The translations under genes and the position numbers were made by a program. A model generated the notes under the pieces. The model did not search any database, was not told the origin of the DNA, and worked only from the letters and a program-made list of their open reading frames with translations. A DNA stretch of 64,000 bases, from contig CM000208.1 of assembly GCA_000002445.1 (NCBI GenBank), positions 3,136,001 to 3,200,000 on the forward strand, given 5' to 3'. Below are positions 2,824 through 49,763 of the stretch, piece by piece. The DNA is from Trypanosoma brucei (lineage: Eukaryota). How positions within the stretch are numbered: the first letter of the stretch is position 1; each line of letters begins with the position of its first letter.

Positions 2824-5610
2824 TCAGACGCGCGACATCGATAGGGCAGGGTCAGTGACTAGGGATTTAACAGATACCACAGGTGGCCGCCAATCCGGGC
2901 TAGTTCGGGGGTTGTGATACGAAACACGGCGCAACCCAGCCTTCAGCCCCTGTAAACTGTCACGTGTGCCCTTCTTCGGACTTTGATCAGCGTCACCTCG
3001 CTGTAGGAGTTCCTTCTTAACATCCACGACAAACCTTCCACATTTCTCAAAGTTGGTCGAAACGAGAACAATTTGGCATTCTTGTTCAGCATATATTTTT
3101 GTAACGTTTTGGATATCCTTTCGAGCGAGATTCAGCGCGAGAGCCGCGCAGCGAGTGAATGTCCTCTTAACACCAATACCATAGCGGTCGCAGTCACGGC
3201 TCAGCGCAAGTTCTTCAGCGAGAGAAACCAAATGAATGACGTCCTGGTATTTCTGCAAAAAACGCAACAAGGCGGTGCGACGCGCCTGCTGTATTTGCCG
3301 TTTTTCGCCGCCACACTCACAATAAAGAGGGTCTGACAGCAGACGCACTGGGGTTGCCGCTGCTGCGGCGTTCACCCGCCTTCCTCCGCCGCGTTGCAGT
3401 GCTACAAGAGAAGAATATGGAATCACCACAGCCGAGTAAAAAGATACAAACGGAAGAAAATATTCTTCAATATTTGCGAGCACATCGGCTGCGAGCACAG
3501 CAATCGCAGCACCCTTAGGGACAAATGTGGGGGCTTGTGGGGCCATCGTGGTAAAAGAGTTCATACGTCGTTGCGCCACTCGAAGTAGCGGCCGTATGTA
3601 CGGTTCCAGTCGTGGGTCAACGCGTGGATCAACGCGCAGTTGCAGCAGTGCCAACTCCAACGCCTCACCATAAGCAGGATAAAGTGAAAGAACTTCCTTT
3701 TCCAGTTCCGGAGCAACTTCGCTTGTGCTCAGAGCGGTCCGTTGTGTATTGCATTTTTCCAGTAGAGTCTGTGGAACTGTGTTACCCACACAGGGATATC
3801 TCTCGAGCAAGCTTTTAATGGCCATTTCTTGCCAATCAAAAATGGAGAGCACCGTCGAAACTCCGACTGATTCTGCGCCCGCCGCCGCAATAAGATACGC
3901 GTAGGTTTGTGGCGTTGGAGCGATGTTGTACTTGGATTGCATGAGCTGTAAAACCTCTTGCGCGTCACGATGCGTAACAGCACAAGCAAGAACTGCGTGG
4001 AACGCACTGCGGGTGAGGGGAGCTCCTGCCTCCACTAAAACCTCGAGAGTTGTCCGCGCGTCGGAACCATACCCTGCACGGGCGTACGCCAGCAGCAAAT
4101 TAGTATATACCGCTGGTGTGAGTCCCCCCACTCCACACTGTTGCCGTGCCTCATGGTAAAACCCAAAGCCCATCGTCGGCTCCTGAGCACTTGCGCAGCA
4201 CGCGATGAGGGCTGCATACGTGTCTGGAGTTGGATCAAATCCCCCATCCCGGAGCTGGCGGTAGAGCGCGAGAGCGACCTCCAAACGGCGGGGGTTTTCT
4301 GATGCCCTACCTGCCGCTTCGATGAGAGCTGTGTACAGATCGACAGAAACGGGGACAACACGCGCAGCTTCGCTTTTTACAAGAAGCTCCTGCGTCATCG
4401 CAAAATCCGCTGTGTTACCACTGCAGCGGGCAAGAGCAACCAACGCAGCGGTAACATCATCTGCGGTAATGACAAAAGTGCCACATTCAGCATGCTGCAT
4501 GAAGCGTTGAAACAACGAGTGAGCAATATCGAACTTCCGTGTTTGCGCACAGCTCGTAATGGCCATGATGTGGTCTTCCGCACTCACAGCTATCAGGTGC
4601 TGCCGCAATTCCCCCTCCACACTTTCAACGACATTGTCTAACGCAAATGTTGTCTCTTCCACCACTGCTTTATGCACCCTTTGATGCGACGTACCTTTAG
4701 CTTTCCTTTCCCAGCCACCTTCCCGAATCACTTGACGATTTAATTTTTTTTCGATATGGTTATTTAAATCACTGAGAGCGATTATCTCTTCTAGGCATTC
4801 CACTGCAAGCGCGTACGCACCTGTTAAGCCGCAAACCACCAATAACGCCCTTCGTATTTCAACTGTTACAACGTCGGGGAGTGTCCACTTTAATAAATTT
4901 CCATTGTTTTCACCACAAGTGTACAAAGAGTTGTGCTGCTCCTCGGTGGTAGCACTCCAGTGACGCAGTCGCTGAGCCAACATCTCCACTTCACGCAACT
5001 CCCTTTGTAGTTCCCTCTCGCTGAGTACATCACCCAATGCAGATGCAGCCTCCGTTGCGTCCTTCAACATGCCGATCGCGCGACGCAGCACAGCCCGAAC
5101 GTCCAATACGTCGGAGAGGGACCTTGTCACACGATCAAGAACCTTTAACGCATCGTTTTGATCTTCACAACTTTGAACAACGTAACCCCCTTCTCCCGGA
5201 TTTTCTGCAAGTTGGGACTTCAGCCGGCCGACTTCATCGAGAAGGTCAGCGAGGACACGCAGGGGGTGAGGGGCACATGGCGCTGACATGAGAGCTACAA
5301 GACTCTCGAAATGCCCGTGCTGCACACGATAGAGATATGCTAAGGGAGAGGTGATACCTGTAGTAGAGCGACCACGCTCTCCGGGTACGCCATAGTTTAA
5401 AGAGCTCTTGTTTTCTGCGATCCTTGTAGTTTCTTTGATACTCGATGCAACATCCCGAGTCACGTTTTTAGGTTGTTTATGCGAACCGGACAACGGCTCA
5501 AGGGACTGGTCAAATACAGCAGGAAAATAACGGTGCTTGCGGGACAGAAGAAAAGCCTTTGTTGCAGTTACATCAAATGACTTTCCCCTCCTAAGAAGAG
5601 TCAGTGTCAT
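2824..5610 (-). CDS. Pentatricopeptide-repeat (PPR) protein, probably mitochondrial RNA-binding, with a ~180-aa non-PPR C-terminal domain
   Basis: The 928-aa protein has repeated 35-aa helical-hairpin motifs (TPDTYAALIACCASAQ..., TPAVYTNLLLAYARAGYGSDA..., TPQTYAYLIAAAG...). The ATG at 5610 was checked. The C-terminal segment (...KIYAEQECQIVLVSTNFEKCGRF...) is not PPR-like. Confidence 0.7.
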   Translation of the reverse strand: MTLTLLRRGKSFDVTATKAFLLSRKHRYFPAVFDQSLEPLSGSHKQPKNVTRDVASSIKETTRIAENKSSLNYGVPGERGRSTTGITSPLAYLYRVQHGHFESLVALMSAPCAPHPLRVLADLLDEVGRLKSQLAENPGEGGYVVQSCEDQNDALKVLDRVTRSLSDVLDVRAVLRRAIGMLKDATEAASALGDVLSERELQRELREVEMLAQRLRHWSATTEEQHNSLYTCGENNGNLLKWTLPDVVTVEIRRALLVVCGLTGAYALAVECLEEIIALSDLNNHIEKKLNRQVIREGGWERKAKGTSHQRVHKAVVEETTFALDNVVESVEGELRQHLIAVSAEDHIMAITSCAQTRKFDIAHSLFQRFMQHAECGTFVITADDVTAALVALARCSGNTADFAMTQELLVKSEAARVVPVSVDLYTALIEAAGRASENPRRLEVALALYRQLRDGGFDPTPDTYAALIACCASAQEPTMGFGFYHEARQQCGVGGLTPAVYTNLLLAYARAGYGSDARTTLEVLVEAGAPLTRSAFHAVLACAVTHRDAQEVLQLMQSKYNIAPTPQTYAYLIAAAGAESVGVSTVLSIFDWQEMAIKSLLERYPCVGNTVPQTLLEKCNTQRTALSTSEVAPELEKEVLSLYPAYGEALELALLQLRVDPRVDPRLEPYIRPLLRVAQRRMNSFTTMAPQAPTFVPKGAAIAVLAADVLANIEEYFLPFVSFYSAVVIPYSSLVALQRGGGRRVNAAAAATPVRLLSDPLYCECGGEKRQIQQARRTALLRFLQKYQDVIHLVSLAEELALSRDCDRYGIGVKRTFTRCAALALNLARKDIQNVTKIYAEQECQIVLVSTNFEKCGRFVVDVKKELLQRGDADQSPKKGTRDSLQGLKAGLRRVSYHNPRTSPDWRPPVVSVKSLVTDPALSMSRV

Positions 5611-8097: not shown

Positions 8098-10839
8098 CTA
8101 TTCCAACGATAACCCTTCTTCAGATACCGCAACTTGATCAATAACGACAGGCATCACTGGTTTGTCGTCTCCGTTCCTCTCCACCTGCGACACGGAGAGC
8201 ACAACTGACTTTCCAGCGGTGACAAACCCAAAAACTGTGTGTTTTCCGTTTAGCCACGGTGTAGCTTCACCTAAAGTGATAAAAAATTGTGATTCGTTTG
8301 TATTCGGTCCGCGGTTTGCCATACACAGCCACTGCACCCTTGGGTAAGAAAAGAAATCCATTGCGTCAACGCCTTCGTCCTCGAATGGCTCACCGAACGA
8401 GCTCAGTCCCCCGGTGCCATCACCATGTGGACACCCACCCTGTATCATGAAACCCGGTACAACTCGATGGAAGGTGAGAGTGTTGTAGAACCCACGCCTT
8501 GACAGTGTGGAAAAATTGGTTACTGCTTTCGGGGCGAATTGAGGCATAAGGCGTACTGTTATTGTACCGAACGTACGGACAGATATGGTAGCACCAACAC
8601 AAATATCGGTCCACGACACAACCCGAGTTGAAGCGGCGGAGATAATACTTTGAACTCGCCGCTCCTCCACTTCACCGTCAAATCCACAGCTATTCTCGCT
8701 TGCTTTGCTATGTTCCACCTCCGAAGTTGTTCTTTCTTCCTCATCCCTCGGAGCCAAAACTTGGAGAGAGGACTGCAACTGCAGCAAATCATCACAGTCG
8801 AAATCCCGTTTCGCACGCAGCGTAGACAGGAGAAGTGCGCGCTGCCTCTCGTTTCCCGTGTCATCTTCTGTATTTTTATCTGTGTTGGGAATGCCAACAG
8901 CGCTTTGCATGACGAAATCGGTTAGGGAGATTTCGTATTTTGTGTACAGCAGAAGGGCATTTCCTCCCAGGGATGTTGTACAAATCGTCGGGTCATCAGC
9001 ATAAGAGTTATGCTCCTCCGTAAAGCCAGCCGAGGGCGTTGCACAGCTTGCCGCTTCAAAAAGTCGCTTAATGTCTTCCTTCGAAAGCGCACAACCAACC
9101 GGAGACTGTGCGACGAGGTTCTTCAGAGCTTGACTAGCGGGGACACACAACCTCAGTAACTTAAGGGGGGCAGCAAAACATCTAAATTCTCCACAGGCCA
9201 TCTGCGAAAAGGAATTTATGATCCCCATGGGCATGCTGTCACCACGAACATCAACTTCCGATTCTCCAATTGAACACGGAAGTTTCTCGATGTAGAAACT
9301 TGACTTCAGAGCCCCCGCTTCCTTCGCCGAAGGAGCTGCACGAAACGTCGCAATACGTCGACCACCCACACATTCCCTGGACGGCTCTGGCACCACAGTT
9401 ATTTCTGGGACAAAAATCCACACGCCACGGGGCGAGGAGTTAAAACTATCCTTGATAACTGCATTAAACACGAAACCTCGCAGGTTGCTTTTCGCCTCTT
9501 GTAGAGTACACAGCTCACCAAGTTGAGGACAAGGCACTTCACTCGTTTCACTGCTGCAAAGGCATACTCCGCTAGCAAACTCGAAGAGATGCAGGAGGAC
9601 GCAAACAGCGCCCCGACGCAGGGAAGCACTAGACACCGTGAAATAGTTTCCGGTTGGTGAAAAATCAACACTAAGTGGTATGATCACCTTCCCTGTTTTC
9701 GCGGCACATGTGACTTCACGCACCAAGGCAAAAAAACCCGTCTTTTGTCGTCTCTCGAATGTGATCCATTGCCTGACTTTCAGTGGATCTGCTGCACTGC
9801 GCGATGGGAAGCCCCCAACAACCCGGAGAGAAAGGATTGTTCTTCCTTCATCGTTCAGATGCTCAACAATTCGCGCGTAGTCCACGATTCCCTCCTCGTC
9901 AACAAGGACAATCAATCCACTCGGAAGATGCTGCTGGCAACAGACTATCAAATTTGCACAACTCAACGCCACAGTAGGAATGGGCTGGCCTTCCTTTGTG
10001 AAATCAGAGCCGCAGAGACGTGACGACTTCTCGACCCCGCACGGAATGAAGACAACACCGTTGGTATCATCGTCTCGTTTCGCGAAGAAGGCAATGTACG
10101 GTTGATAATCGTGATGAAACAAAAACGGTCGTGGGGTGAATGACTCTTTCCACGGTTGCGTAGCAGAAGGGTGGCACCGACGGGCGGCATTAAACTGAAG
10201 TGAAAACCGCCCTTCGAGCGCCATGAGTGGGCCATTCACACGAGATACCTCGACGTTTACACTGATATTCCCAGTATCATCAGCAGCATGCGGAGTGACG
10301 CAGACGAATAAAATACATGAGTTTACCGGGTCCGGCAGGACAAAGTGAAGGCCTGCATTAGTGACCTCCTCTGATTCCACGCTTTTGGGGAAAAACTTTC
10401 TGTACTCTCCCGTGAAGAAAACGCCACGGGGAAGCTTACGCCAAGCACGCACCACTCCTACTGCGTCAACGGTTACAATCAGCGCACCGTTATCATCTGC
10501 TAATGTGGCAATGTCCTGCACAGGACTTCCATGCCGGTAGCTTCGTTCATACAAGAAGGAGCAAGGGTATCCCTCCGCGCTCAGCATATCCATGGTGCTT
10601 TGCTGCTTCTTGCATTTGCTCACCCCTTCTTGTACATCATCGCTGGTATCAATAGGTTCATCATTTAGATCGCTGGGCCCCAGTGAACGAGGTCGTTTCC
10701 CACGCACACTCTCTTCTCCAGCACGCGTAGGTTCAGCGCTATCAGCTTCGGAGGTGTTCACAAGCAGCACAGGAATAGTCGGGAGGAAATCTTCCTCCTC
10801 GTCTTCGCTGTTTTCATTGCTCGACCGATGTGCCTGCAT
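8098..10839 (-). CDS. PPWD1-type protein: N-terminal WD40 domain fused to a C-terminal cyclophilin (PPIase) domain
   Basis: The C-terminus carries FHRVVPGFMIQGGCPHGDGTGGLSSFGEPFEDE...MANRGPNTNESQFFITLGEATPWLNGKHTVFGFV, a canonical cyclophilin signature. The N-terminal YERSYRHGSPVQD...WRKL matches the start of the human PPWD1 WD region (YERSYMHRDV). The track ORF begins with GTG at 10884; the first ATG (MQAHRSSNENSEDEEED) is at 10839. An acidic extension of ~100 aa precedes the WD40 domain. Confidence 0.8.
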   Translation of the reverse strand: MQAHRSSNENSEDEEEDFLPTIPVLLVNTSEADSAEPTRAGEESVRGKRPRSLGPSDLNDEPIDTSDDVQEGVSKCKKQQSTMDMLSAEGYPCSFLYERSYRHGSPVQDIATLADDNGALIVTVDAVGVVRAWRKLPRGVFFTGEYRKFFPKSVESEEVTNAGLHFVLPDPVNSCILFVCVTPHAADDTGNISVNVEVSRVNGPLMALEGRFSLQFNAARRCHPSATQPWKESFTPRPFLFHHDYQPYIAFFAKRDDDTNGVVFIPCGVEKSSRLCGSDFTKEGQPIPTVALSCANLIVCCQQHLPSGLIVLVDEEGIVDYARIVEHLNDEGRTILSLRVVGGFPSRSAADPLKVRQWITFERRQKTGFFALVREVTCAAKTGKVIIPLSVDFSPTGNYFTVSSASLRRGAVCVLLHLFEFASGVCLCSSETSEVPCPQLGELCTLQEAKSNLRGFVFNAVIKDSFNSSPRGVWIFVPEITVVPEPSRECVGGRRIATFRAAPSAKEAGALKSSFYIEKLPCSIGESEVDVRGDSMPMGIINSFSQMACGEFRCFAAPLKLLRLCVPASQALKNLVAQSPVGCALSKEDIKRLFEAASCATPSAGFTEEHNSYADDPTICTTSLGGNALLLYTKYEISLTDFVMQSAVGIPNTDKNTEDDTGNERQRALLLSTLRAKRDFDCDDLLQLQSSLQVLAPRDEEERTTSEVEHSKASENSCGFDGEVEERRVQSIISAASTRVVSWTDICVGATISVRTFGTITVRLMPQFAPKAVTNFSTLSRRGFYNTLTFHRVVPGFMIQGGCPHGDGTGGLSSFGEPFEDEGVDAMDFFSYPRVQWLCMANRGPNTNESQFFITLGEATPWLNGKHTVFGFVTAGKSVVLSVSQVERNGDDKPVMPVVIDQVAVSEEGLSLE

Positions 10840-12025
10840 CTGCCACGTCCGTTTCGCTCTTTCTCTGTCCACCCACCGCCGCACCCCGCTTTTATCCTCA
10901 CGGTGGCAGAGCGGCCCAACTACTAGTCTTCGTCAAAGAAAAGAATGGAGAAAGTCCTTGCATTCTGTGCCATACGAGAAGCAATCTCGAATATGTCACC
11001 CCGCTACGGGTGATACATCAGCTAGTACGCACATTTTTGAGACCCCAGGGAACGTAAAAAGTTCGACGCAGTACAAGGCGAAATGACAGCGGTGGGATGC
11101 AACTGAAAACACGTCCGACTACTCCAGAAGTGGAAAACGGAGAATGGAACATGACCCAATAGCAGCAGAAAAGGAGTTTGGGACACAGTCCTACAATGGG
11201 ACAAAAAGAATTGCAGAAAGGAAGGGAATAGCCAGCCTAGAAGGGGGTGACGAACGAAAACTTTTCAGATGCAACCCTCGCTGCCCTCGTATTCGTTATT
11301 TTCCCTTCACCAAAAAGGAGGTACACATCACAGAGAGGATTGCTGCACCATCTTTCCATCAAAACCCCAACCAACGAAAAAAAAGTTTGCGGTATTTACC
11401 TTCCATAGTTTCAAACACGTTCGCACCAGAGTCCACACTTGTTAGGTTCGCCAATAATGTACACTGTACCTACCACCTTTTTTTAAATCTCATGAACATT
11501 TCCCCAAATATACCAGCGTATGCTTCTGTTCGTTTTTATATTGGCTACGCTATGTAACCAAATGCGGATAAGGTAACAATATTCACCTTCTTTCCCTCGC
11601 CACTCTACAGCAACACGACGGTTACCACGTTAATGTGTGATGCTGAAAACCTTTCGTGTTGGTAATTGAAGCCACCACTGGTAGGCACCTAACCCCCGTA
11701 AGAGAAAACACCCGAAAGAGGAACAATATTTATTTCCTTCAAACAACTCAGAACTCACTAGCGAAAGCCGCTCGACGGCAAACAAGATAAAAAAGGTAGA
11801 AAAAGGTGTTTCCATTCAGGCTGGGATAGTAGATGAGATGACGTGTCGGCACCGAAATGAACTTTAGCTCATCGTGTTGCTGCCCGACAACTGAATCACG
11901 CACGACCTATCCTCTTAGCAGGTCCTTATTCTCCCTCCGCTTGTGTTTCCATATGTACTTTCTGTTACACCTATTTTACGTGAACGCTTTCACCCAGTCA
12001 AAGGAGTATCCAAATGCCTCCATCC

Positions 12026-39173: not shown

Positions 39174-40412
39174 TCACTCCACTTTCCTTACGGAGCCCTC
39201 AAGATTTCGCACATTCCACCATATTTGCCCAACGTGGCATACAACAGCTAGCACCGCTGCAGTTGGCGGGCAGCTAACGAATATCAGACAGACCAAAATA
39301 ACACCTGCAAGTGGCAGCGGATCGGTTTGCGGCAGTTTTGCGCAATGTGCGTAAATGGGAATGTGAACAATGGAACTACACGTGCATGCCATGGTAATGA
39401 TCCACAAAGCAACGTACGAGAAGGGCCCCAAGGTATAGGTCCCATACCCACCCTTTTCTATGTGGACAGCGTGGCACGGTATGATGGCAAGTAGCAGAGC
39501 CAAGTTGAGAACCAACATGATCGTTGGAAGACGAAGAAACATGCTTTTGCTTTTCGCACCAATATTCACGAGGACAAAGCACTGCGAGATCCAACATACG
39601 ACAAGCCCTGCGTCGATACACCGTAGAGGAATCAGTTGCCGTGCCCACGACTCAGGGAGTACCGCATTCAGGAGGGCAGGTGAGAATGTTGCTTTTCCAA
39701 CATTAGGGAACATAAGTGATATCCAACTCGTAAGAAAGAAAAACAACATTGCCTCGTCAACAGACACAAACCGATTGCCCCATATGAAGATATTTTTCTC
39801 ATAGTGGAGCGTGTGCGAAAGAATCGTGGGCAGGGCCACAAGGGCAGTCGTGACTGCAACATTGGAGAACGAGAATCCAAGTACAGACATTGAAACGCAG
39901 GTCGACATCAACGAAGTAACACAATCTAACCCGTGGTCTAGATATTCACCAATGTTGCTGGTTTTCTTCAAGCGACGAGCAAGGCAGCCGTCAGTATTAT
40001 CAGCAACACAGTAAATAAGGTTGAGAAACCCACAGAGTAGCAGCATGGATGTGGGTGTAAACACAGAGTTAAAGTATGGCTGCAGCATTGATGGGTAAAG
40101 CGGTGAAGGACCCGGGGCATCCATCCACTTAGGGCTTTTGATCAGAAAATACGAGCCGGGAACAAACGTCGCGAACGGGGGTTCAAAAAATGTGTTCAGT
40201 GGCATAGCTGTAAGCAGTAACAATGATGAAACGACTGTTGCAAAAATACCGGTTAGCGTCACTTTGTTTGGGGTCCATGTTGTTGGGTAAAGCGATGCCG
40301 CATATTTGTATACCGGACTCAATACATACTCGAAGAGGTACGACAGTTGTGGCACCACCGGCGACGACAGGTCCTCGCACCGCGTAGAAGTGAGTAAGTC
40401 TACTACTCCCAT
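39174..40412 (-). CDS. CDP-alcohol phosphotransferase (choline/ethanolamine phosphotransferase, CEPT/EPT-like)
   Basis: Multi-pass membrane protein carrying the CDP-alcohol phosphotransferase motif DG-x2-AR-x8-G-x3-D-x3-D in DNTDGCLARRLKKTSNIGEYLDHGLD. The ATG (MGVVDLL) at 40412 was checked; the track ORF extends to 40520. Confidence 0.8.
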   Translation of the reverse strand: MGVVDLLTSTRCEDLSSPVVPQLSYLFEYVLSPVYKYAASLYPTTWTPNKVTLTGIFATVVSSLLLLTAMPLNTFFEPPFATFVPGSYFLIKSPKWMDAPGPSPLYPSMLQPYFNSVFTPTSMLLLCGFLNLIYCVADNTDGCLARRLKKTSNIGEYLDHGLDCVTSLMSTCVSMSVLGFSFSNVAVTTALVALPTILSHTLHYEKNIFIWGNRFVSVDEAMLFFFLTSWISLMFPNVGKATFSPALLNAVLPESWARQLIPLRCIDAGLVVCWISQCFVLVNIGAKSKSMFLRLPTIMLVLNLALLLAIIPCHAVHIEKGGYGTYTLGPFSYVALWIITMACTCSSIVHIPIYAHCAKLPQTDPLPLAGVILVCLIFVSCPPTAAVLAVVCHVGQIWWNVRNLEGSVRKVE

Positions 40413-40742
40413 ATATTCTCCCCTCCTTCCGCTACGTTTAGTGTTTCCCTCCAATTTAACGCGAGAGGAGGCGTGATACTGGGTGCCCGGTAAAATACAA
40501 GAAGCAGATCCTTTGTGCACGTACTTACGTAATAAAAATATGAAGAAAAAATAAATAGAAATACGCTATCAAATATAATTGATGCCTGTTGTCCTTCCTT
40601 CTTTCCCTTCTCTTTCACGCTCACCCTCTAGGGTTCCCACAAAGGGAAGAGTGATCAAATGGAAGGGGAAAAACACATCTGCGTAACGTTTATTGCGATA
40701 AAGCATGTAACCATACACTTACAGAATTAACTCCCATCGCGA

Positions 40743-41591
40743 CTAGTGTACCATCATCAACCCACGTCCCCCAATGTTTTCCTTTACGGCGTGAATGTGG
40801 TCAATAATTCGATTGTCTGCCGTCCTGCAGATATATACGACAAGGCGGTTGTGTATCCCATGCGTATTGAGCAGCCGCCGCATCATCTTTGGACTCCATT
40901 CGAACTCTGTTCTTCCGTCATACGAACAAGGTTCAATGACATTGATTGTAGAGTCCCCCTGAAAGTATTTCAATTCCACCGCGAAGGCACGGTCGTTATG
41001 AAAGTCACGAAACCCAGCCACGAGACCGTGGTCGTGCATTACCCGCGCGCATCCTCGTGTTTCAATGGTGGAAGGTACGACAACGAACCGCTTCCGTTGC
41101 TCCGTTGCCTCCCGAATCCGATGACAGAAGTCATATATTGGAGTATACAAGTTCTCCTCCCGCCTGCGCGGCACGCGCTTTTCTATCTGGACTCGGTCGT
41201 CATCCTGGACACTCGGTTTGTCGTACGTCCCGTAGTATAACGCATGGTCCCCCTTATGCTGAAAGAAAAGCCTCGTGATAGGATCAGCAGGGAGGTCGCG
41301 CCGGCGCTCTACTCCCGGTAAATCAACGAGTGGGGTTTGTGGTACAGCTTCATGGGAACTGACTGCCTCACTGCGTTGCAGTCGCGCCTGCATTGGCATT
41401 CGCTCCTCCTCCAGCAGCGCGTTCAACTGCTGGCGGAGCAATCTCTCATCCCGTTTGACATCGTTGGCAACAGCGAAGAGGCTCCCTTCTCGCTCTCGCT
41501 TCCCATGCAGAAGACGATGCCCTTGCGCCGCACCTAAAGGGGGCACCGCCCCGTAAACCTTCGCCAGAGAAAGAAGCGACTGGCGGAGCAT
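40743..41591 (-). CDS. Mitochondrial ribosomal protein uS8m (S8 family) with a long N-terminal extension
   Basis: The C-terminal ~130 aa resemble bacterial S8: IYDFCHRIREATEQRKRFVVVPSTIETRGCARVMHDHGLVAGF corresponds to [41 protein letters not shown]. The terminal LVVYICRTADNRIIDHIHAVKENIGGRGLMMV corresponds to [30 protein letters not shown]. The ATG at 41591 was checked. The N-terminal ~150 aa are Arg/Leu-rich, consistent with a mitochondrial presequence plus extension. Confidence 0.6.
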   Translation of the reverse strand: MLRQSLLSLAKVYGAVPPLGAAQGHRLLHGKREREGSLFAVANDVKRDERLLRQQLNALLEEERMPMQARLQRSEAVSSHEAVPQTPLVDLPGVERRRDLPADPITRLFFQHKGDHALYYGTYDKPSVQDDDRVQIEKRVPRRREENLYTPIYDFCHRIREATEQRKRFVVVPSTIETRGCARVMHDHGLVAGFRDFHNDRAFAVELKYFQGDSTINVIEPCSYDGRTEFEWSPKMMRRLLNTHGIHNRLVVYICRTADNRIIDHIHAVKENIGGRGLMMVH

Positions 41592-42216
41592 TCTAAACAG
41601 CTAATCCACTTCCTCAAGGTCCGCAGGTACACGTCGAAACCCTACCACTTACCTATTTCACAACAAAGATACGTCCCCCTCTTCGGCGTGCAGCTTCCAA
41701 GGCGAAAGCGCCCCTATCTGTATCTCTTATTTACCAGCTCTCACCTTTCGCCGTGCCACCGCGAATGAAATTGTAGGAAGGTTTTACAACTCGAAGAAAG
41801 TGGTGCACTGGCCGGCAAGAAAATTTGAATAAACCACTGGGTTTTTCTAGTGAACCGTACCGTAATTCCGTCCACAGAGTTAAACCCTGTCAAGCGGCGA
41901 AAAGTGAGGAACTGGTATCGAAAAAGGAAGAAGAGTAAAAACAAGTACAAGCACTAGGTAAGGTGGTCAACGGGTAAACCGCTAGGTTTACTTTCACCCA
42001 AACAGTTGTTACCTAGGCATTTATTTTCCTCTTAATGTTGCACCAACGTGTTAGCAATCGTCCATCCTTTACACAAAAAATATTATAAACGCATCACAGC
42101 TGGTGTTAACCGAGGGCATCGTTTGAATCGAATACCCTGCATTTAATGAAGGAATGCATCCATTTTGGGTTCACTTGCAGTCACAACTTCCCAAAAAGAG
42201 ACGAGCGGTATCGTAG

Positions 42217-43116
42217 CTAAATAACATGTCGATACATTTCGTACGTTGAGCCTTCATCGGTCCTACGCTCGATCCGTATGATGCTTCCGCGGGGAAGGTC
42301 CAAATACTCAACCATTGGGTCGTCGTTAAGTATACGCGGAAGTTGCGTAATCATCAGCTTCCTTTGCTCCAGGAACGCCCGGACTTCAACATCCGTCATC
42401 GGCACGTGTTTCGGCACCGATTGGTGCCTTGATATGTTGTATGCGAGCTCATCCTCCTCGAATACCTGAATCCGAATAACCTGCCCTGTTGTACCGGGAT
42501 GGAGGCCGCCTCCCGCTTCACGGATACTTCGCCGACCTCCGCGAACCTTAGACCCAACCACAACGATCATAGAACTGGCATTTCTCCGTTGTGCCACCTC
42601 TCGAAGGTTATTTAGGACATCCACGCCAAGTGATTGAACAAAGAACGCACACAGAATTGTTTCGTTCTTTTTTCGACTAGAAGGCTCGGCTGTGGGGCCC
42701 CTTCCATCCACCTCATCTTCCGTTTTGCAACTGATTGCCCCACCCCCGAAACCGATTCGAGAGGATGACCCCTTACACACAAGCTCCAGCGAAGAGTAAA
42801 GGAAATCTTGTGAAGCATCACGGAGCGCTTTTGTACGCTTCGATTTCGACGGATCCTTTCCCGGCCTCCCTTCCTGCTTCGCCTCCTCTTCTTCTTCAGC
42901 GGTCGTCTGCCGGTGACGTTGTAAATAAGAAGAGCATCTTTGGGTAAACCACTGGTAATTCAGGCCATCCGTTATATCGTACAACCTTGAATCGCGGATT
43001 GCATTGGCAACATCGGACGGATGACTTACGACAAAACCACGGTCAATGGCCATTTGAATTACAGTATTGAATGCGCGGTACAACCGTATCATCTTGAAAC
43101 TTTTGACGGAATCCAT
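42217..43116 (-). CDS. RPB5-family RNA polymerase subunit, divergent paralogue (RPB5z-like)
   Basis: The N-terminus IRLYRAFNTVIQMAIDRGFVV matches the RPB5 N-terminal jaw motif (yeast [22 protein letters not shown]). The C-terminus YNISRHQSVPKHVPMTDVEVRAFLEQRKLMITQLPRILNDDPMVEYLDLPRGSIIRIERRTDEGSTYEMYRHVI matches the RPB5 C-terminal domain. An ~80-aa acidic/basic insertion (TTAEEEEEAKQEGRPGKDPSKSKR...) is present. The ATG at 43116 was checked. Confidence 0.8.
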   Translation of the reverse strand: MDSVKSFKMIRLYRAFNTVIQMAIDRGFVVSHPSDVANAIRDSRLYDITDGLNYQWFTQRCSSYLQRHRQTTAEEEEEAKQEGRPGKDPSKSKRTKALRDASQDFLYSSLELVCKGSSSRIGFGGGAISCKTEDEVDGRGPTAEPSSRKKNETILCAFFVQSLGVDVLNNLREVAQRRNASSMIVVVGSKVRGGRRSIREAGGGLHPGTTGQVIRIQVFEEDELAYNISRHQSVPKHVPMTDVEVRAFLEQRKLMITQLPRILNDDPMVEYLDLPRGSIIRIERRTDEGSTYEMYRHVI

Positions 43117-43420
43117 ATTGTAGCGTGCTGGAGAACTAAACGAGGGAGGGTATAGTTGCTAATGGGGGTATGCTTGTTCCGTGTTGTACTGCTTTGTCTG
43201 GACTATTAAACGGAAGAGCCTATATTTTAATGCGCCACCCTGCGTGCACATAATAAAAGGGCAGGCAGCGAGAATGAAATGGTAAAGAAAGATGTATAAG
43301 TAAGAAATTTTCGCTATTCGGCAACGTAACAGTATGTGGTGAGTTCTGACACAACAAAGGCATTAGAAAACTTGTTGCGCCATGCACACCTTGTTATAAA
43401 TGGGTAGAAATAATACTGTC

Positions 43421-43434
43421 ATATATATATATAT
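43421..43434. repeat. (AT)7 microsatellite in the RPB5-RPB5z intergenic region
   Basis: Direct reading atatatatatatat. Confidence 0.9.
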
Positions 43435-43510
43435 TTGTGGTTTCGTTAAGGGCTTGTGCCAGAACGAAACAGTCGCAGCCGTGGAAAGCACAAAGGATAC
43501 CGCGTGACCC

Positions 43511-44170
43511 CTACACTACCTGTCGGTACGTAACGTAGAAACCGGCCGATACGCTCTTCCGCTCGATTCGTACGACACGACCGCGCTCCAGCCCCAAGTA
43601 AGCTGCCACAGGATCAGTTGAGAGAATACGTGGTAGCATGTTTAGCTCCAATGAATGAGCCTCAAGCATCTCCTTGACCTCCTCGTCCTCTAGCTGTGTA
43701 TGTTTGGGTACCAATTCGTGATGAGTGATATTCACCACAAGGTCATCCTCGTCGAACAGCTGAACCTTTTGACCAGTGCCGCTACGGTTGATGCAATCCA
43801 CATAACGCTTAACTGTAGCATTTACCTTCCCATGTGTTACGATGATTACGCGTTCGCAATTCGCATCCATTGCTGTTTGGCAGTACCCCTTCATCCCCTC
43901 CATTCCTAGTTCAGAAGCAAAGAACACCATGGCCCGACTGCGGTGCGTGCCACCGACACGTTCACACGGTACCGTCATGCGCTCACGGTAAATCCTCCTC
44001 CCCTCTCTGTCTACATATTGCTCACAGAACTGTCCAACCGTCTCCGGGATGATGCTGCTCGGGACTTGATACTTCCGGTCCCTCATCATCTCCCCCACCG
44101 TCCTCATCACCCGAAACATACGATCATAGACAAGCTCCTCTTGGCCGATGGCGTAGCTTTCACTGCTCAT
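43511..44170 (-). CDS. RPB5: RPB5 (RPABC1), canonical RNA polymerase common subunit
   Basis: LVVNITHHELVPKH is identical to the yeast Rpb5 block. The following LPRILSTDPVAAYLGLERGRVVRIERKSVSAGFYVTYRQVV matches the yeast [39 protein letters not shown] region. The ATG at 44170 was checked; the product is 219 aa. Confidence 0.9.
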   Translation of the reverse strand: MSSESYAIGQEELVYDRMFRVMRTVGEMMRDRKYQVPSSIIPETVGQFCEQYVDREGRRIYRERMTVPCERVGGTHRSRAMVFFASELGMEGMKGYCQTAMDANCERVIIVTHGKVNATVKRYVDCINRSGTGQKVQLFDEDDLVVNITHHELVPKHTQLEDEEVKEMLEAHSLELNMLPRILSTDPVAAYLGLERGRVVRIERKSVSAGFYVTYRQVV

Positions 44171-45434
44171 TGTATGTCGTCGCTGGTTTCCCCTATCCTA
44201 CCTACAGATTGCATTAGCGTAACGAAAAGCCAACAACAGAAAATGAGACGGAAAGTCAACCAAACATCTTGTCAAAATAAAAGGCAATGATCACCACAGG
44301 ACAAAGGAGCACTCAGCTGCAAAGTACGGAAACCTGAAGGGGATAAGCAAACCAGTGAAAAGGTGCAATGAAATTGCGCTTAGCCTACCGGTAGCCCACC
44401 GTGCACACAGATAAGTAAACAAATGAACAAACACAGAAAAAGCTGTGTTATATTGACTCTATCGCTCTGGATAAGATTTCATCCCACTCTATAGGTAAAT
44501 AAAAAACGTTGCACCACGACTCTTAGGTGGGCTTACTTACACAGCCTTAAAGCAGCAGGAGGCACTCATCTGGAATAAAAAGGGGGAAAAGATCACGTGC
44601 CAGCAGAAACCTTAACATTCTGCTCGCTGCATAACACTTACAACCATGGAAGAGGGGGGATAAAAACTTAAAACCACAACACGTTTCTGCTCCCATGTGC
44701 GTACAAAGAAACAGACAGGGTGGAAGCAGGAGTGTTTGTACCAAGGTCGTTGCATCACGGAGGAAAACTACTTCCGTTGATAAATACAGAAATGAGTAAA
44801 CTTAAAAAAAAAAACAGAGAAGGACAGAAAAGGAAGAGGAAGATAGGAAAGGAGCCACATTCAAAAACAACATTCACACTGGTGCGGCTGGCTGGACACG
44901 GCACGACACCACAGAGAAATCAAAAGGGCTTCTGAGTACTAAATAAGGTTAAGAAAAGTTGTAAACTAAGGACAAAGCTAGGTTTTTAAATAATTGGCTC
45001 CCTTCCCCACGCACACAAACACACCCGTCTGCAAGTAAAAACTAAAAAAGGAGCGGGTTGAAGGCTGGCGGCGGCTACCACTGGCCCCTTCCTCCCGCCT
45101 TTTGTATTTTCCTTCAGTAAGTGCCTCTGATATGATTACATCTACTGAAATTCGGCAGGCAATTCATCACAAATCTGTAATTTTATTCGTTATGTTAGCA
45201 GCGGCTCCAGCTACTCGTCGGCGTCTGCAAATGTGAGCGAGCATTGTCGACTGCAGTCACCGGCACAAATTATTCACTGCCAAAGTATCTGTGCAGCATA
45301 CGTTAGGTCTCCAGTTCCTGACAACGACAGAGGTAGCTATTTAAATACTACAACCTCACACTACGCCCCTTTCCTTCTTCTCCACATATACCTATCAGCG
45401 GCCGGTATTTACCGCGGCTTTTCGCTGAGTCGTT

Positions 45435-48400
45435 CTATCTGCAACCGTCACTGCGTGGGATCCGATACGCGGCAATTGCTTTATTTCTTTTTCGCACCGT
45501 CACAAATACATGCGAAGCAAGTCCACTGGACAACACACTGCGAACATCCCTGATTGTGCGAACACGTTTTCCATCTACCTCCATAATAATATCACCCCGC
45601 TCAATACCGGAGGCAGAAGCTTCTGCCGTTTGCGCCTCAACGGTAAGTCGTTCAGGGGAGATAACTAGCCCTATGGGTATCCACTCCGGCATCATTGGCT
45701 CTCCTGTTTTGAGCCTGATTTCGCACGAGGGTGATTGCGAGCGGGCACCTGTGCTGCAAGGATTGGCTGAAGTGAAACGTAATTGGTTGTTCAGACTTCT
45801 AGAGCGCTGCGGGTACTTGGTCATTCCGCCACGCTGAGTCTTTTCAGGAGATGAAACACGGCCTTCGGATGATACCCTCCTCAACCTCGATCCCGCAGAC
45901 GGTGCTCGCTGATTTGCGCGACCTTGCCTTCCATACTCATCCTTTTGCTTTCCCTCCTCACTTGTTCGATTAGTTACCGGTGCGGATGCCACGGGCGTCA
46001 TTTTTCTCCCTCTCCCCCCTGTTACAACAGCAGGAGATACCATTTTCCCCTCTCTGGTCGCCGATGGATCCCTTCGAGGTACGCTTTTGGAAATGGAGCG
46101 CGGCGCTGCACCTGGCTGTGACTGGGTTCCACTGTTCCTCTTCAGTTCCTGTAACCGTGCTCGCAGATCACTCACCTGTGGTCGAGATCTCTTCTCCGCA
46201 ACCACATCCTGCGATCTATTGCTGCCTCCCGTTGTCGGTAGTCTCTGCGCTTCCCCACGGGAGGGATTCTTCAGTTGCATGTAAAGGGTCTTCGGTTGCT
46301 TAACCGCTTGGTGACCCTTCACTCGTGCATAGAACCGCCACTTGGCGAAAAAACGAAGCAGCAAAAACTTCATGACTGCACGTGTCATAACACGGACCGC
46401 AGTTTCTATGAACGGAGGAATTGAGCGCGCCGTGCTACTCCGCGGAGCAGTACGAGCACTAGGTGACCCGCCCTCGCTCCACGGCGTAAAATGCCAGCGG
46501 CGCTCCTTGTTGGACTCGCTACGAGATAGTAGAGAGGGTGAACGTGATTCAACACGTGCGAGGGTTCGTTCACTACACGGTTTCTTGGGGGGGAAACTTT
46601 CAGACGGTTGCTCACCGGCCCCTGGTATGTGGTCCTGGTACGAGCTGTAACGCGTTCCGTCCTTTCCACGCCAAGTTGTGGTAAGCTGTTGGTCCAGAGT
46701 ACGATTCGTAGCGCGTACCACTGAATGAGGGCTGCTTCGTTGAGAGGAATTAAAACTACCAATATCAGCAGAGGCTACAAGCAGTGCTGGGACGTTAATG
46801 CTGCAACTCAATGGTAGAAGTTCTGTGTCACCATAACGGTCAAGGTGAGAATTGCTTTGCCGCAGCTCGCGGACGCTGACACCTAGTTTCATAGCTACGG
46901 CTCTCAAATTCATTTCTTGTTTGACACGGCGTGATGGGGGTGTTTGACTTCGTAGGGACGGCGACATGCTAAGTGTTTCTGTGAGGGGCCCATACCGTGG
47001 GATGTGGAGCCTGGCAGACTGGGGCAGGGGCATGTCGACGTCAAACGTGGCGAGGTGCGGATTTGAAGCGATAAGCAACTCGAGCGGAACGTCGTGCAGA
47101 AGCGCGATATGGGTAAGTGTTGCGGGCTCGTTGTCTGGCGTAAGTGAATCTTCGTGAGAAGGAAGAAAAAATTCCTGCTGTTGTCGCCAATCGATACCAG
47201 CTATATCACTACACTCATCCTCTCCTTCAAGTGGATTACTACCTCCACCATCGACAAAGAGCTGAGCACTCGTGTTCGGCCCCCGTGGCGTTGCACAACA
47301 TTCCTCTTTGCTCAATAAATCATTTGGTGGTGCAGTGGTCACCACATTGTTTTCGTCGATACGATCGTGCAAACCTCCCGCTCCATGCGCAGCAGCACAG
47401 TCAAATCGGACGGCGGTCGGTTTGTCATGGTTGAGGCAACGCTTGTGAATTTTGAGCACTTGAGGGAAGTCAAATACAGCAATAAGAGCATTTATTTCAT
47501 CCTCCAATAGATAGCGGTCGTGCACCAACCCAAAAACAATACTGTTATCCTCGTGGGAAAATTCAACGTCCTTCACACACTCCCTCGATAATTCAAAAAG
47601 TGCAGTGACTTCGGACGAAAATGTCTGAATAATATCATCTTCAAATCTGCTAACTGTTATATCCCAGTCAGTACCAGAAAATGTCTTTTTGTGCCGCGTT
47701 GTGAGGAGCTGCAGGGCATCCTGTTGACTGGCGTACGGTCGCCGTTGTGGAGGTTGAGGGGGCAGTTGGGAGAGCCATTCCCGGTTAATGCTCTGCTCTT
47801 GCGGCAGAACGGAGGTTTGTTTTTTCGTTACATCGCATGATTCTTGCGGCTGTGAGGAAGAAAACAGTGAAATGGGGAGTAAATCCTCAGAGAAGCTATT
47901 TGGCTGAAGTGACGGTGAGTTACTGATGTCATCCCCCTGGTTCGGTAAGGGGCCAGCACCGTGTGCCTGCGACGCATCGTCGGCATCATGACTTTCCACC
48001 CCAAAATTCGCTACGGAATTACCGGGTGCAGCATCTGAACTAGCCAAATTCAGTCGTGCCTGAAACAGTGTCGGCCCCTCCCCGCCTGTACCAAGAACCT
48101 CACTTTCTCTCTCAGGTGGTTGCTGCGGCCACCGCACCGTGTGCCCAACAGGATCATAATGAAATGCCTCGTTAGGACTAGGTGGACCAGAAGAAGGCGC
48201 CTCCTCTTCCCTCAACGTGATTGGAAAGGTTGAAAGAGTGGACTCGTCATTTATATCGTTGTACCTCTGTAATTTATCCCCGTTCCAAATGCCGTTCCCA
48301 TGGGTATTCAGAGGGGCGTCATCTAGTTCACAGTGGCCATTATTGGCATCTTTTACGGCTGGGGAGCTGGCAAAGCCAGCACCACCAGACTCCAGTTCCT

Positions 48401-49481
48401 CCTCCAATCGAGTATATTGGGCAAGCAAGCCCGAGAACTCACATTGCCGTAGAAGCAGCTCGGCTCTGGCGTCATCTACAGAGGCAGGAAGTCGAATGTG
48501 AAACTGCACCCGCTGCACAGCACCGCTCCCACATTCTGTGCCAACGTCGAGAGCGCGTATGTTCCAAACAGAGTGGGCGTTGATGCCAAACGCCTCACCT
48601 ACATCCTTCGCAAAGATATCCTTCCACGTGCAGCGCGTTCCATCAATATCGTCAACTATCGCGTTCTCCTCGAGCAGCAGGCCCTGCCAGAGAGGTCCGC
48701 GGAATGATTTGCTAAGTACGGCAACACGGAACTTCCCTGTTGTACTACGGTAACCGTTGCTCTCTTCCTTCACTGTGCTTAATCCCTTTTCATTGCGGTG
48801 AGGCAAGTTAATTGCGCTATCTTCGTGACATATAAGATAATTTGTAACTATATGATCCTGCGTTTGTCTACAAAGTTCTGAGTGCTCCAGTAAGGGTTCC
48901 GCGGAAAACTCGTCTGAGGGCAATTTGACGGCTCGTGGAGCCACGTCCTCCCCACCTTGGGTAGAAAAGGTCAAAACGGGCGTAACAGAGAGGGTCGAGG
49001 CGACTGTAAACACCACATCTAGAAGTTCTTTTACTGCAGCGTGGGCCCGCTCCGTTATAACACGTCGCCCAGTAGAGCTATCGCCCAGTAAGCCGACGTG
49101 CTTCACACTGCCGAGCGTGGAGTTTACGCGCCGGACGCGCTCCCGCAGAAGCTGGGATTTACGCACAAACAACGCGGTATCAACTATCCTCGGTAAAGCG
49201 TAACCGTTAATGTCGTTGAATTCATTTGCAGCGTTACATTGAGGAGACTTTAAGCTTCCACCTGAAGCCGTCTCATTAATACTACACAATTGCTCTAGTA
49301 AAACTCGTGAATGTTCGCGCAACAGCATGCAAACGGCGGCAAGTTTCTTCTCCATGGGCAAATGTGGTGTTGTTGACGTCTCAGAGTCGCCCGTTTGTCC
49401 TCCCGCAGCCACAGCACGTAGATCTGCGTTTGTAAGTACCTCCTGGAGTATTTGAATAGCTTCGTTGCATGATTGATCCAT
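45435..49481 (-). CDS. Giant hypothetical protein (~1348 aa) with a C-terminal PDZ domain
   Basis: The C-terminal IGLVISPERLTVEAQTAEASASGIERGDIIMEVDGKRVRTIRDVRSVLSSGLASHVFVTVRKR carries the PDZ hallmark (a hydrophobic strand, then the GxxxGDxIxxVNG-like loop). The track start at 49493 is GTG; the first ATG (MDQSCNEAIQ) is at 49481. The central region is Ser/Pro-rich. Confidence 0.6.
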   Translation of the reverse strand: MDQSCNEAIQILQEVLTNADLRAVAAGGQTGDSETSTTPHLPMEKKLAAVCMLLREHSRVLLEQLCSINETASGGSLKSPQCNAANEFNDINGYALPRIVDTALFVRKSQLLRERVRRVNSTLGSVKHVGLLGDSSTGRRVITERAHAAVKELLDVVFTVASTLSVTPVLTFSTQGGEDVAPRAVKLPSDEFSAEPLLEHSELCRQTQDHIVTNYLICHEDSAINLPHRNEKGLSTVKEESNGYRSTTGKFRVAVLSKSFRGPLWQGLLLEENAIVDDIDGTRCTWKDIFAKDVGEAFGINAHSVWNIRALDVGTECGSGAVQRVQFHIRLPASVDDARAELLLRQCEFSGLLAQYTRLEEELESGGAGFASSPAVKDANNGHCELDDAPLNTHGNGIWNGDKLQRYNDINDESTLSTFPITLREEEAPSSGPPSPNEAFHYDPVGHTVRWPQQPPERESEVLGTGGEGPTLFQARLNLASSDAAPGNSVANFGVESHDADDASQAHGAGPLPNQGDDISNSPSLQPNSFSEDLLPISLFSSSQPQESCDVTKKQTSVLPQEQSINREWLSQLPPQPPQRRPYASQQDALQLLTTRHKKTFSGTDWDITVSRFEDDIIQTFSSEVTALFELSRECVKDVEFSHEDNSIVFGLVHDRYLLEDEINALIAVFDFPQVLKIHKRCLNHDKPTAVRFDCAAAHGAGGLHDRIDENNVVTTAPPNDLLSKEECCATPRGPNTSAQLFVDGGGSNPLEGEDECSDIAGIDWRQQQEFFLPSHEDSLTPDNEPATLTHIALLHDVPLELLIASNPHLATFDVDMPLPQSARLHIPRYGPLTETLSMSPSLRSQTPPSRRVKQEMNLRAVAMKLGVSVRELRQSNSHLDRYGDTELLPLSCSINVPALLVASADIGSFNSSQRSSPHSVVRATNRTLDQQLTTTWRGKDGTRYSSYQDHIPGAGEQPSESFPPKKPCSERTLARVESRSPSLLSRSESNKERRWHFTPWSEGGSPSARTAPRSSTARSIPPFIETAVRVMTRAVMKFLLLRFFAKWRFYARVKGHQAVKQPKTLYMQLKNPSRGEAQRLPTTGGSNRSQDVVAEKRSRPQVSDLRARLQELKRNSGTQSQPGAAPRSISKSVPRRDPSATREGKMVSPAVVTGGRGRKMTPVASAPVTNRTSEEGKQKDEYGRQGRANQRAPSAGSRLRRVSSEGRVSSPEKTQRGGMTKYPQRSRSLNNQLRFTSANPCSTGARSQSPSCEIRLKTGEPMMPEWIPIGLVISPERLTVEAQTAEASASGIERGDIIMEVDGKRVRTIRDVRSVLSSGLASHVFVTVRKRNKAIAAYRIPRSDGCR

Positions 49482-49763
49482 TGCGCGACACACAGAGCTT
49501 AACAGAGCGCTCTTACACTAACCTTCCTTGAAGGTTTTCGTTTAGCTATCAACAAAAGGTATACACACAAAATGAAATGAGGGGAATGATGTTCAACAGC
49601 ATATCATACAACAAATGCACTCAGCAGGGGAAAAAAAATTATGCATGTGTTAAGGAGCTCGGGGAAATGTACACACATACATATGCGTAAAAGTAAAGTC
49701 TCCACAGTAGACAACTCGTTTGAGATACCCAAAATCCAAACCAAGAACAGTTTCTTTACGCCC

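Follow-up and report, generated by a model that had tools for sequence, protein, structure and literature searches.

The 64,000 nucleotides of Trypanosoma brucei analysed here (contig CM000208.1, positions 3,136,001 to 3,200,000; the window) contain RPB5 and RPB5z, two neighbouring genes that encode paralogous RNA polymerase (Pol) subunits. We found that the pair is not peculiar to T. brucei: because the same gene order recurs in T. cruzi, Leishmania donovani and Bodo saltans, the duplication appears to be old and to predate the split between Bodo and the trypanosomatids. Sequence comparison also singles out a few substitutions, fixed throughout the RPB5z clade, as the most likely basis of incorporation into Pol I, ahead of the loop expansions that make RPB5z the longer protein.

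Both open reading frames (ORFs) in the ORF list lie on the minus strand, head-to-tail and 394 bp apart (Table 1), as an earlier reading of the letters alone, the sequence-only reading, had described; its assignment of the upstream frame to canonical RPB5 and the downstream frame to an RPB5z paralogue is borne out by exact matches to deposited T. brucei proteins. In an exact-sequence look-up, the 299-amino-acid (aa) product was identical at every residue to EAN78704.1 (T. b. brucei TREU927), CBH16508.1 (DAL972), XP_011778772.1 and SCU72652.1, the last recorded as ‘RNA polymerase I subunit RPB5z’, and the 219-aa product was identical at every residue to CBH16509.1 / XP_011778773.1 of T. b. gambiense DAL972. 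As the match is exact, the identity of the pair is firm: the locus is almost certainly the chromosome 10 pair of RPB5 and RPB5z (Tb927.10.13310), and there is no evidence against this identification. Accessions CBH16508.1 and CBH16509.1 run consecutively, so RPB5z and RPB5 are adjacent in deposited T. brucei too, and Tb927.10.13310, annotated as RPB5z, is one of the proteins tabulated in a study of ISG75 interactions (PMC9896412).

The paralogue pair and its adjacency are thus already on public record, and the impact on annotation is small, both genes being annotated and RPB5z having been under experimental study for about 20 years. The RPB5 allele found here is the gambiense/equiperdum form; the TREU927 form is another member of the same 90% cluster. 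In a T. brucei equiperdum assembly, a protein recorded as RPB5z has 117 aa (RHW68875.1), probably because the gene model for this locus is truncated. Deposited RPB5z orthologues mostly carry the name ‘DNA-directed RNA polymerase II’ (TREU927, DAL972, T. cruzi, T. grayi, T. rangeli and T. theileri), which masks the Pol I role.

The relatedness of the two proteins is not due to chance, since BLASTP aligned their C-terminal 143 aa with E = 9e-29 (36% identity); over 210 aligned positions they are 30% identical. RPB5 matched both Pfam domains of the family above the curated cut-offs of 27 bits for Rpb5_N and 23.5 bits for Rpb5_C (61.1 and 96.3 bits, respectively), and its best matches in the PDB are Rpb5 chains (E ~1e-32). 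RPB5z, whose start at M1 is backed by N-terminal alignment with orthologues, scored 76.5 bits for Rpb5_C over residues 226-298 and fell below the cut-off for Rpb5_N (20.8 bits, residues 8-32). An AlphaFold2 model of RPB5z built on 21 orthologues (predicted local distance difference test (pLDDT) 85.1, predicted template modelling (pTM) score 0.82) aligned in Foldseek with the entire length of solved Rpb5 chains from Pol I, II and III, with target-normalised template modelling (TM) scores of 0.75-0.87. The model indicates that the jaw domain is present despite its sub-threshold Pfam score, in keeping with the earlier view that the longer copy retains both jaw and assembly domains.

RPB5 contains the block LVVNITHHELVPKH, which we take to be identical in S. 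cerevisiae Rpb5. Its identity to a yeast sequence, part of the sequence-only reading, was seen in Rpb5 of Komagataella phaffii (5x4z_E, dlvvnithhelvpkh), and the divergent counterpart in RPB5z, YNISRHQSVPKH (residues 226-237), is likewise present. The label ‘hinge’ given to these blocks does not hold: they make up the first strand region of the assembly domain, at the C terminus, and Pfam places the start of Rpb5_C at residue 146 of RPB5 and residue 226 of RPB5z.

Age and conservation of the pair

The genes have the properties of tandem duplicates, being homologous, adjacent and on the same strand, in an order kept in T. cruzi, L. donovani, B. saltans and three uncultured lineages. The series RPB5, RPB5z, a Ribosomal_S8-family (S8) gene and a CDP-alcohol phosphatidyltransferase-family gene, continuing to a GCN1-like gene, was found in B. 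saltans (CYKH01001076.1), L. donovani, T. cruzi (CM026585.1) and the window. The full order was also found in one uncultured lineage (L009/L010), and shorter uncultured contigs carry RPB5, RPB5z and S8 (L002) or RPB5 and RPB5z (L008). The S8-family gene occupies the same place at every kinetoplastid locus examined (L002, L003/L004, L006/L007, L009/L010 and L011/L012), and the upstream neighbour, which has FAZ1_cons and PDZ domains, is shared with T. cruzi and L. donovani. The question of whether the copies are neighbours in syntenic TriTryp genomes is thereby answered: they are adjacent in T. cruzi and L. donovani, and in L. major by their gene IDs.

A recent event would be expected to leave residual nucleotide similarity or gene conversion, and neither was found for RPB5 and RPB5z: no DNA repeat links the two genes, and the interval 41600-44800 gave matches of only 17-19 nt, at chance level. 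Of the proposal that a local tandem duplication was followed by specialisation, the tandem origin and the specialisation stand, with the paralogues adjacent and separate Pol I and Pol II/III roles in the literature; the idea of a recent local event fails, the duplication apparently predating the Bodo split.

An exhaustive profile search recovered RPB5z as a discrete family of 19 representatives (E <= 1e-30, 143-576 bits, 172-361 aa), after which scores fall to canonical RPB5 at <= 116 bits. Named members come from T. congolense, Phytomonas, Strigomonas and B. saltans (CUG82291.1), and a search with an insertion-trimmed alignment added RPB5z of T. cruzi, T. vivax, T. grayi, T. rangeli, T. conorhini, T. 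theileri and T. melophagium. In a neighbour-joining (NJ) tree of 56 sequences (205 columns), the RPB5z clade was monophyletic in 197 of 200 bootstraps, with B. saltans inside it, at a mean distance of 1.44 to kinetoplastid RPB5 versus 1.70 to other eukaryotic RPB5. The longer T. brucei copy groups with RPB5z and the shorter with RPB5, not the reverse. The RPB5 of one bodonid-like metagenomic lineage groups with Trypanoplasma borreli.

The B. saltans RPB5z orthologue has 279 aa and is encoded directly downstream of RPB5 (L004:6855-7694); the record name of CUG82291.1, ‘DNA-directed DNA polymerase II subunit, putative’, appears to be an annotation error. A full-length RPB5z query in a word-index homology search yielded 1994 candidates and two hits, with no named orthologue among them, and the trimmed query recovered those orthologues; the failure of the full-length query was probably due to the low-complexity insert. 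An unsampled source organism, at which the sparse full-length hits hinted, was ruled out by the exact-sequence look-up together with the trimmed-alignment search.

The paralogues differ strongly in rate. T. brucei RPB5 is 82% identical to that of T. congolense, ~76% to those of other trypanosomes, ~50% to that of Leishmania and 49% to that of B. saltans. Compared in parallel, T. brucei and T. congolense share 43% identity in RPB5z and 82% in RPB5, and T. brucei and Bodo share 30% and 47%, respectively; these comparisons indicate that RPB5z diverges roughly three times faster than RPB5. The non-Trypanosoma RPB5z proteins compared (Phytomonas, Strigomonas, Bodo and L002) are 30-38% identical to that of T. 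brucei.

Such divergence raises the thought that RPB5z is a duplicate in decay, or one that arose recently in T. brucei alone, as do its Rpb5_N score under the cut-off and the restriction of its 36% identity with RPB5 to the C-terminal 143 aa. We regard this as having a negligible chance of being correct, and indeed as ruled out: the RPB5z ORF is intact from B. saltans to Leishmania and its fold is kept; Trypanosoma, Leishmania, Phytomonas, Strigomonas and Bodo all have orthologues with the same synteny; the copies share no DNA-level similarity; and the protein is listed in a published protein table and has been used, tagged, as a nuclear Pol I marker.

Very probably, then, RPB5z is not a trypanosomatid invention, and a Pol I with an RPB5 of its own is older than parasitism and than the transcription of variant surface glycoprotein (VSG) and procyclin genes by Pol I, the jaw-loop expansions being lineage-specific additions and not what makes RPB5z specific to Pol I. 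Since the pair and its synteny are at least as old as the ancestor shared with B. saltans, specialisation would not be an adaptation to parasitism or antigenic variation. We found no mention of RPB5z in B. saltans in the literature searched, and one review calls the z-paralogues ‘only present in trypanosomatids’ (PMC6562600), a statement that a Bodo RPB5z would, if true, correct. The presence of RPB5z and of the tandem arrangement in B. saltans and bodonid-like lineages is the sole, and modest, extension to the known picture.

Extra residues and Pol I specificity

The sequence-only reading described a single charged insertion of ~80 aa; we found instead four separate loop expansions, all in the jaw domain. 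Measured between conserved anchor columns, the net gain of 80 aa in TbRPB5z relative to TbRPB5 splits into +9 before F57, +36 between F57 and L112, +30 between L112 and F158, and +5 between I184 and Q217. Strong charge is limited to residues 63-104 (expansion B; 45% K/R/D/E), and residues 117-152 (expansion C) are rich in Gly/Ser/Pro/Thr. AlphaFold2 predicts helices at 54-81 and 91-108 that form an extended hairpin, with a pLDDT of 68-96 in 10-residue blocks over residues 51-110. Expansion C lies between model strands 112-116 and 154-160, with disorder predicted over residues 122-147 and a pLDDT < 50 at residues 122-140 and 145-147.

Across RPB5z orthologues the F57-L112 segment ranges from 23 to 76 aa and the segment of expansion C from 14 to 93 aa, and among the aligned orthologues there are no conserved columns inside either main expansion. 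Their median lengths are 42 and 41 aa, versus 15 and 14 aa in other eukaryotic RPB5, of which 15 were sampled with 10-19 aa at these two loops. Each of the 19 RPB5z representatives has some expansion; the loops of one bodonid RPB5z-like protein (lgn61) are short, at 29 and 14 aa. Enlargement is not confined to RPB5z: these two loops are also longer in canonical RPB5 of Strigomonas, Leptomonas, L002:561-1457 and the lgn29/35/37/38 lineage, reaching <= 50 and 55 aa. G51, L52, Y54, W56 and F57, at the start of the first segment, are the same in T. brucei and P0002 RPB5z, which are 37% identical overall, and recur in other Trypanosoma sequences.

The charged region had been put forward as a candidate Pol I-specific interaction surface, for which RPA31, CITFA or RPA1-specific elements might be partners and the helical hairpin at ~58-108 the chief element. 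Every RPB5z orthologue has some expansion at these loops, part of expansion B is predicted to be ordered helix, and the start of the segment recurs among Trypanosoma, all of which would suit such a surface. Conservation gives it no backing, however: both segments vary widely in length with no conserved columns inside, bodonid RPB5z-like proteins can be short there and expansion C is predicted to be disordered. Enlargement of these two main loops in some canonical RPB5s further weakens the case for a conserved surface specific to Pol I, and we consider such a surface improbable.

We lean instead towards the expansions being tolerated, fast-drifting surface loops or disordered segments with no sequence-specific partner, in which charge would at most help nucleolar partitioning. 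The segments are highly variable and low in complexity, being either charged or Gly/Ser-rich, pLDDT is low in expansion C and RPB5z as a whole evolves fast; because the same loops are also enlarged in canonical paralogues of other lineages, they look like general hot-spots of tolerance. Retention of an expansion in 19 of 19 RPB5z representatives nevertheless suggests some retained value, and the hairpin prediction is fairly confident. On the model, the four expansions fall in predicted surface-exposed loops, and their rapid drift in length and sequence makes it unlikely that they set specificity.

The 56-sequence alignment offers another candidate. Only a few residues, P33, R172, R196, E200 and M294, are conserved in the RPB5z clade and not in canonical RPB5, which carries Thr at the position of M294; 36 positions are conserved in RPB5z and canonical RPB5 alike, including R14, T18, D25-R26, N227, H231, P235, H237 and L259-P260-R261. 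As candidates for specificity, the extra 80 residues would be weaker than this handful of substitutions.

In T. brucei, Pol I transcribes the ribosomal RNA genes and, in addition, VSG and procyclin genes. For the Pol I specificity of RPB5z, reviews cite Walgraffe 2005, Nguyen 2006 and Devaux 2007. We take this specificity, and the nuclear localisation of RPB5z, as reported in reviews and later papers: RPB5z, RPB6z and RPB10z are described as exclusive paralogues of RPB5, RPB6 and RPB10 in T. brucei Pol I (PMC6562600, PMC8311968), and RPB5z fused to yellow fluorescent protein (YFP-TbRPB5z) has served as a Pol I-specific marker that shows the extranucleolar expression-site body (PMC6893287, PMC4256477). 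In L. major, LmjF.18.0780 is given as RPB5 (27.2 kDa, Pol II/III) and its neighbour, LmjF.18.0790, as RPB5z (37.6 kDa, Pol I; PMC7920299). L. major RPB5 is listed among the proteins that co-purify with the Pol III subunit C82 (PMC11894013) and among those that co-purify with Brf1 (PMC7920299, PMC11894013); no RPB5z was seen in the inspected part of the C82 co-purification table (PMC11894013).

Taken together, we propose that one tandem duplication in the ancestor of trypanosomatids and free-living bodonids produced the pair, which would have stayed adjacent since, in the same four-gene context. RPB5z replaces RPB5 in Pol I, as the literature describes, and RPB5 is the ordinary ABC27/RPABC1 subunit, listed in trypanosomatids for Pol II and III. 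Judged from the place of Rpb5 in solved structures of Pol I, II and III, RPB5z should dock through its assembly domain on RPA1, the largest subunit, and its jaw domain should line the downstream-DNA channel, with selectivity for Pol I probably resting on the five clade-fixed residues in a conserved fold. Two results limit this scheme: RPB5z and kinetoplastid RPB5 were monophyletic together in just two of 200 NJ replicates, so that the point at which RPB5z attaches is not fixed, and neither a PDB sequence search nor a paper search yielded a Pol I structure from a trypanosomatid, the docking geometry being by analogy only for that reason.

Features of the locus

Table 1. Features of the RPB5-RPB5z locus, in window coordinates
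Feature	Position	Strand	Basis
Upstream neighbour, FAZ1_cons + PDZ protein, 1352-aa ORF	45435..49493	-	Pfam PF23398 69.1 bits, PF17820 27.2 bits
RPB5 (canonical RPABC1/ABC27 orthologue), 219 aa	43511..44170	-	ORF, Pfam, exact match
RPB5 jaw (N-terminal) domain, residues 15-99	43874..44128	-	Pfam PF03871
RPB5 assembly (C-terminal) domain, residues 146-218, with LVVNITHHELVPKH	43517..43735	-	Pfam PF01191
Intergenic spacer, 394 bp	43117..43510	-	Sequence reading
RPB5z, 299 aa, 33.8 kDa, isoelectric point 9.0	42217..43116	-	ORF, exact match, clade, fold
RPB5z expansion B, residues 63-104 (charged)	42805..42930	-	Composition, anchor-column lengths, AlphaFold2
RPB5z expansion C, residues 117-152 (Gly/Ser/Pro/Thr-rich loop)	42661..42768	-	Composition, anchor-column lengths, AlphaFold2
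RPB5z assembly (C-terminal) domain, residues 226-299, with YNISRHQSVPKH and M294	42220..42441	-	Pfam PF01191
Ribosomal_S8-family protein, 282 aa, directly downstream of RPB5z	40743..41591	-	Pfam PF00410, 37.4 bits
CDP-alcohol phosphatidyltransferase-family protein	39174..40520	-	Pfam PF01066, 31.8 bits

Read on the minus strand, the spacer contains a polypyrimidine tract at ~43253-43292, with an AG (43241-43240) after it, ~124 nt before the RPB5z ATG; tract and AG are a plausible candidate trans-splicing acceptor for RPB5z mRNA. The S8-family neighbour is mitoribosomal S8-like. The CDP-alcohol phosphatidyltransferase-family ORF is listed from a GTG, and translation may in fact begin at an in-frame ATG (MGVVDLL..., residue 37); the ORF may be the T. 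brucei ethanolamine phosphotransferase gene.

All 18 ORFs of >= 250 aa in the window (1-64000) are on the minus strand, and cumulative GC skew falls steadily; the all-minus arrangement fits a single trypanosomatid polycistronic transcription unit. Two ORFs of 928 aa, at 2824-5610 and 8098-10884, were considered as a possible segmental duplication and rejected, as they are unrelated (BLASTP E = 0.52); one contains pentatricopeptide repeats (PPR) and the other has a C-terminal cyclophilin domain.

Comparison with known systems

The closest system is the deposited T. brucei pair itself (EAN78704.1 / CBH16508.1 and CBH16509.1), which has the same residues and the same adjacency. In L. major the smaller canonical copy comes first and the larger RPB5z second (LmjF.18.0780/LmjF.18.0790), as in T. 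brucei; L. donovani has the same four-gene synteny with a longer RPB5z (342 aa) whose expansion sequences are different.

Plant NRPD5/NRPE5 is an independent Rpb5 duplicate that serves a subset of polymerases, and its chains (7eu0_E, 8hyj_E and 8hil_E) match both T. brucei proteins; the duplication is nevertheless a separate one, serving Pol IV/V and not Pol I, with no sign of a common origin other than that of the Rpb5 family as a whole. Archaeal Rpo5 (subunit H) is homologous to the assembly domain of RPB5z (target-normalised TM-score 0.85-0.93, root mean square deviation ~1.1-1.4 A); the matched chains, of 74-78 residues, align with the C-terminal domain only and have no counterpart of the jaw, in which all RPB5z expansions lie.

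Yeast and human Rpb5 (RPABC1, ABC27) has the same two-domain fold, jaw plus assembly, as both T. brucei proteins. The TPSA motif contacts downstream DNA in yeast; the human TPSA stretch aligns with NATV in TbRPB5 and roughly with RGG in RPB5z. In yeast and human a single Rpb5 serves Pol I, II and III, whereas in kinetoplastids two paralogues share that role, a rare case in which the ‘shared’ subunits RPB5, RPB6 and RPB10 have split into Pol I-specific and Pol II/III forms.

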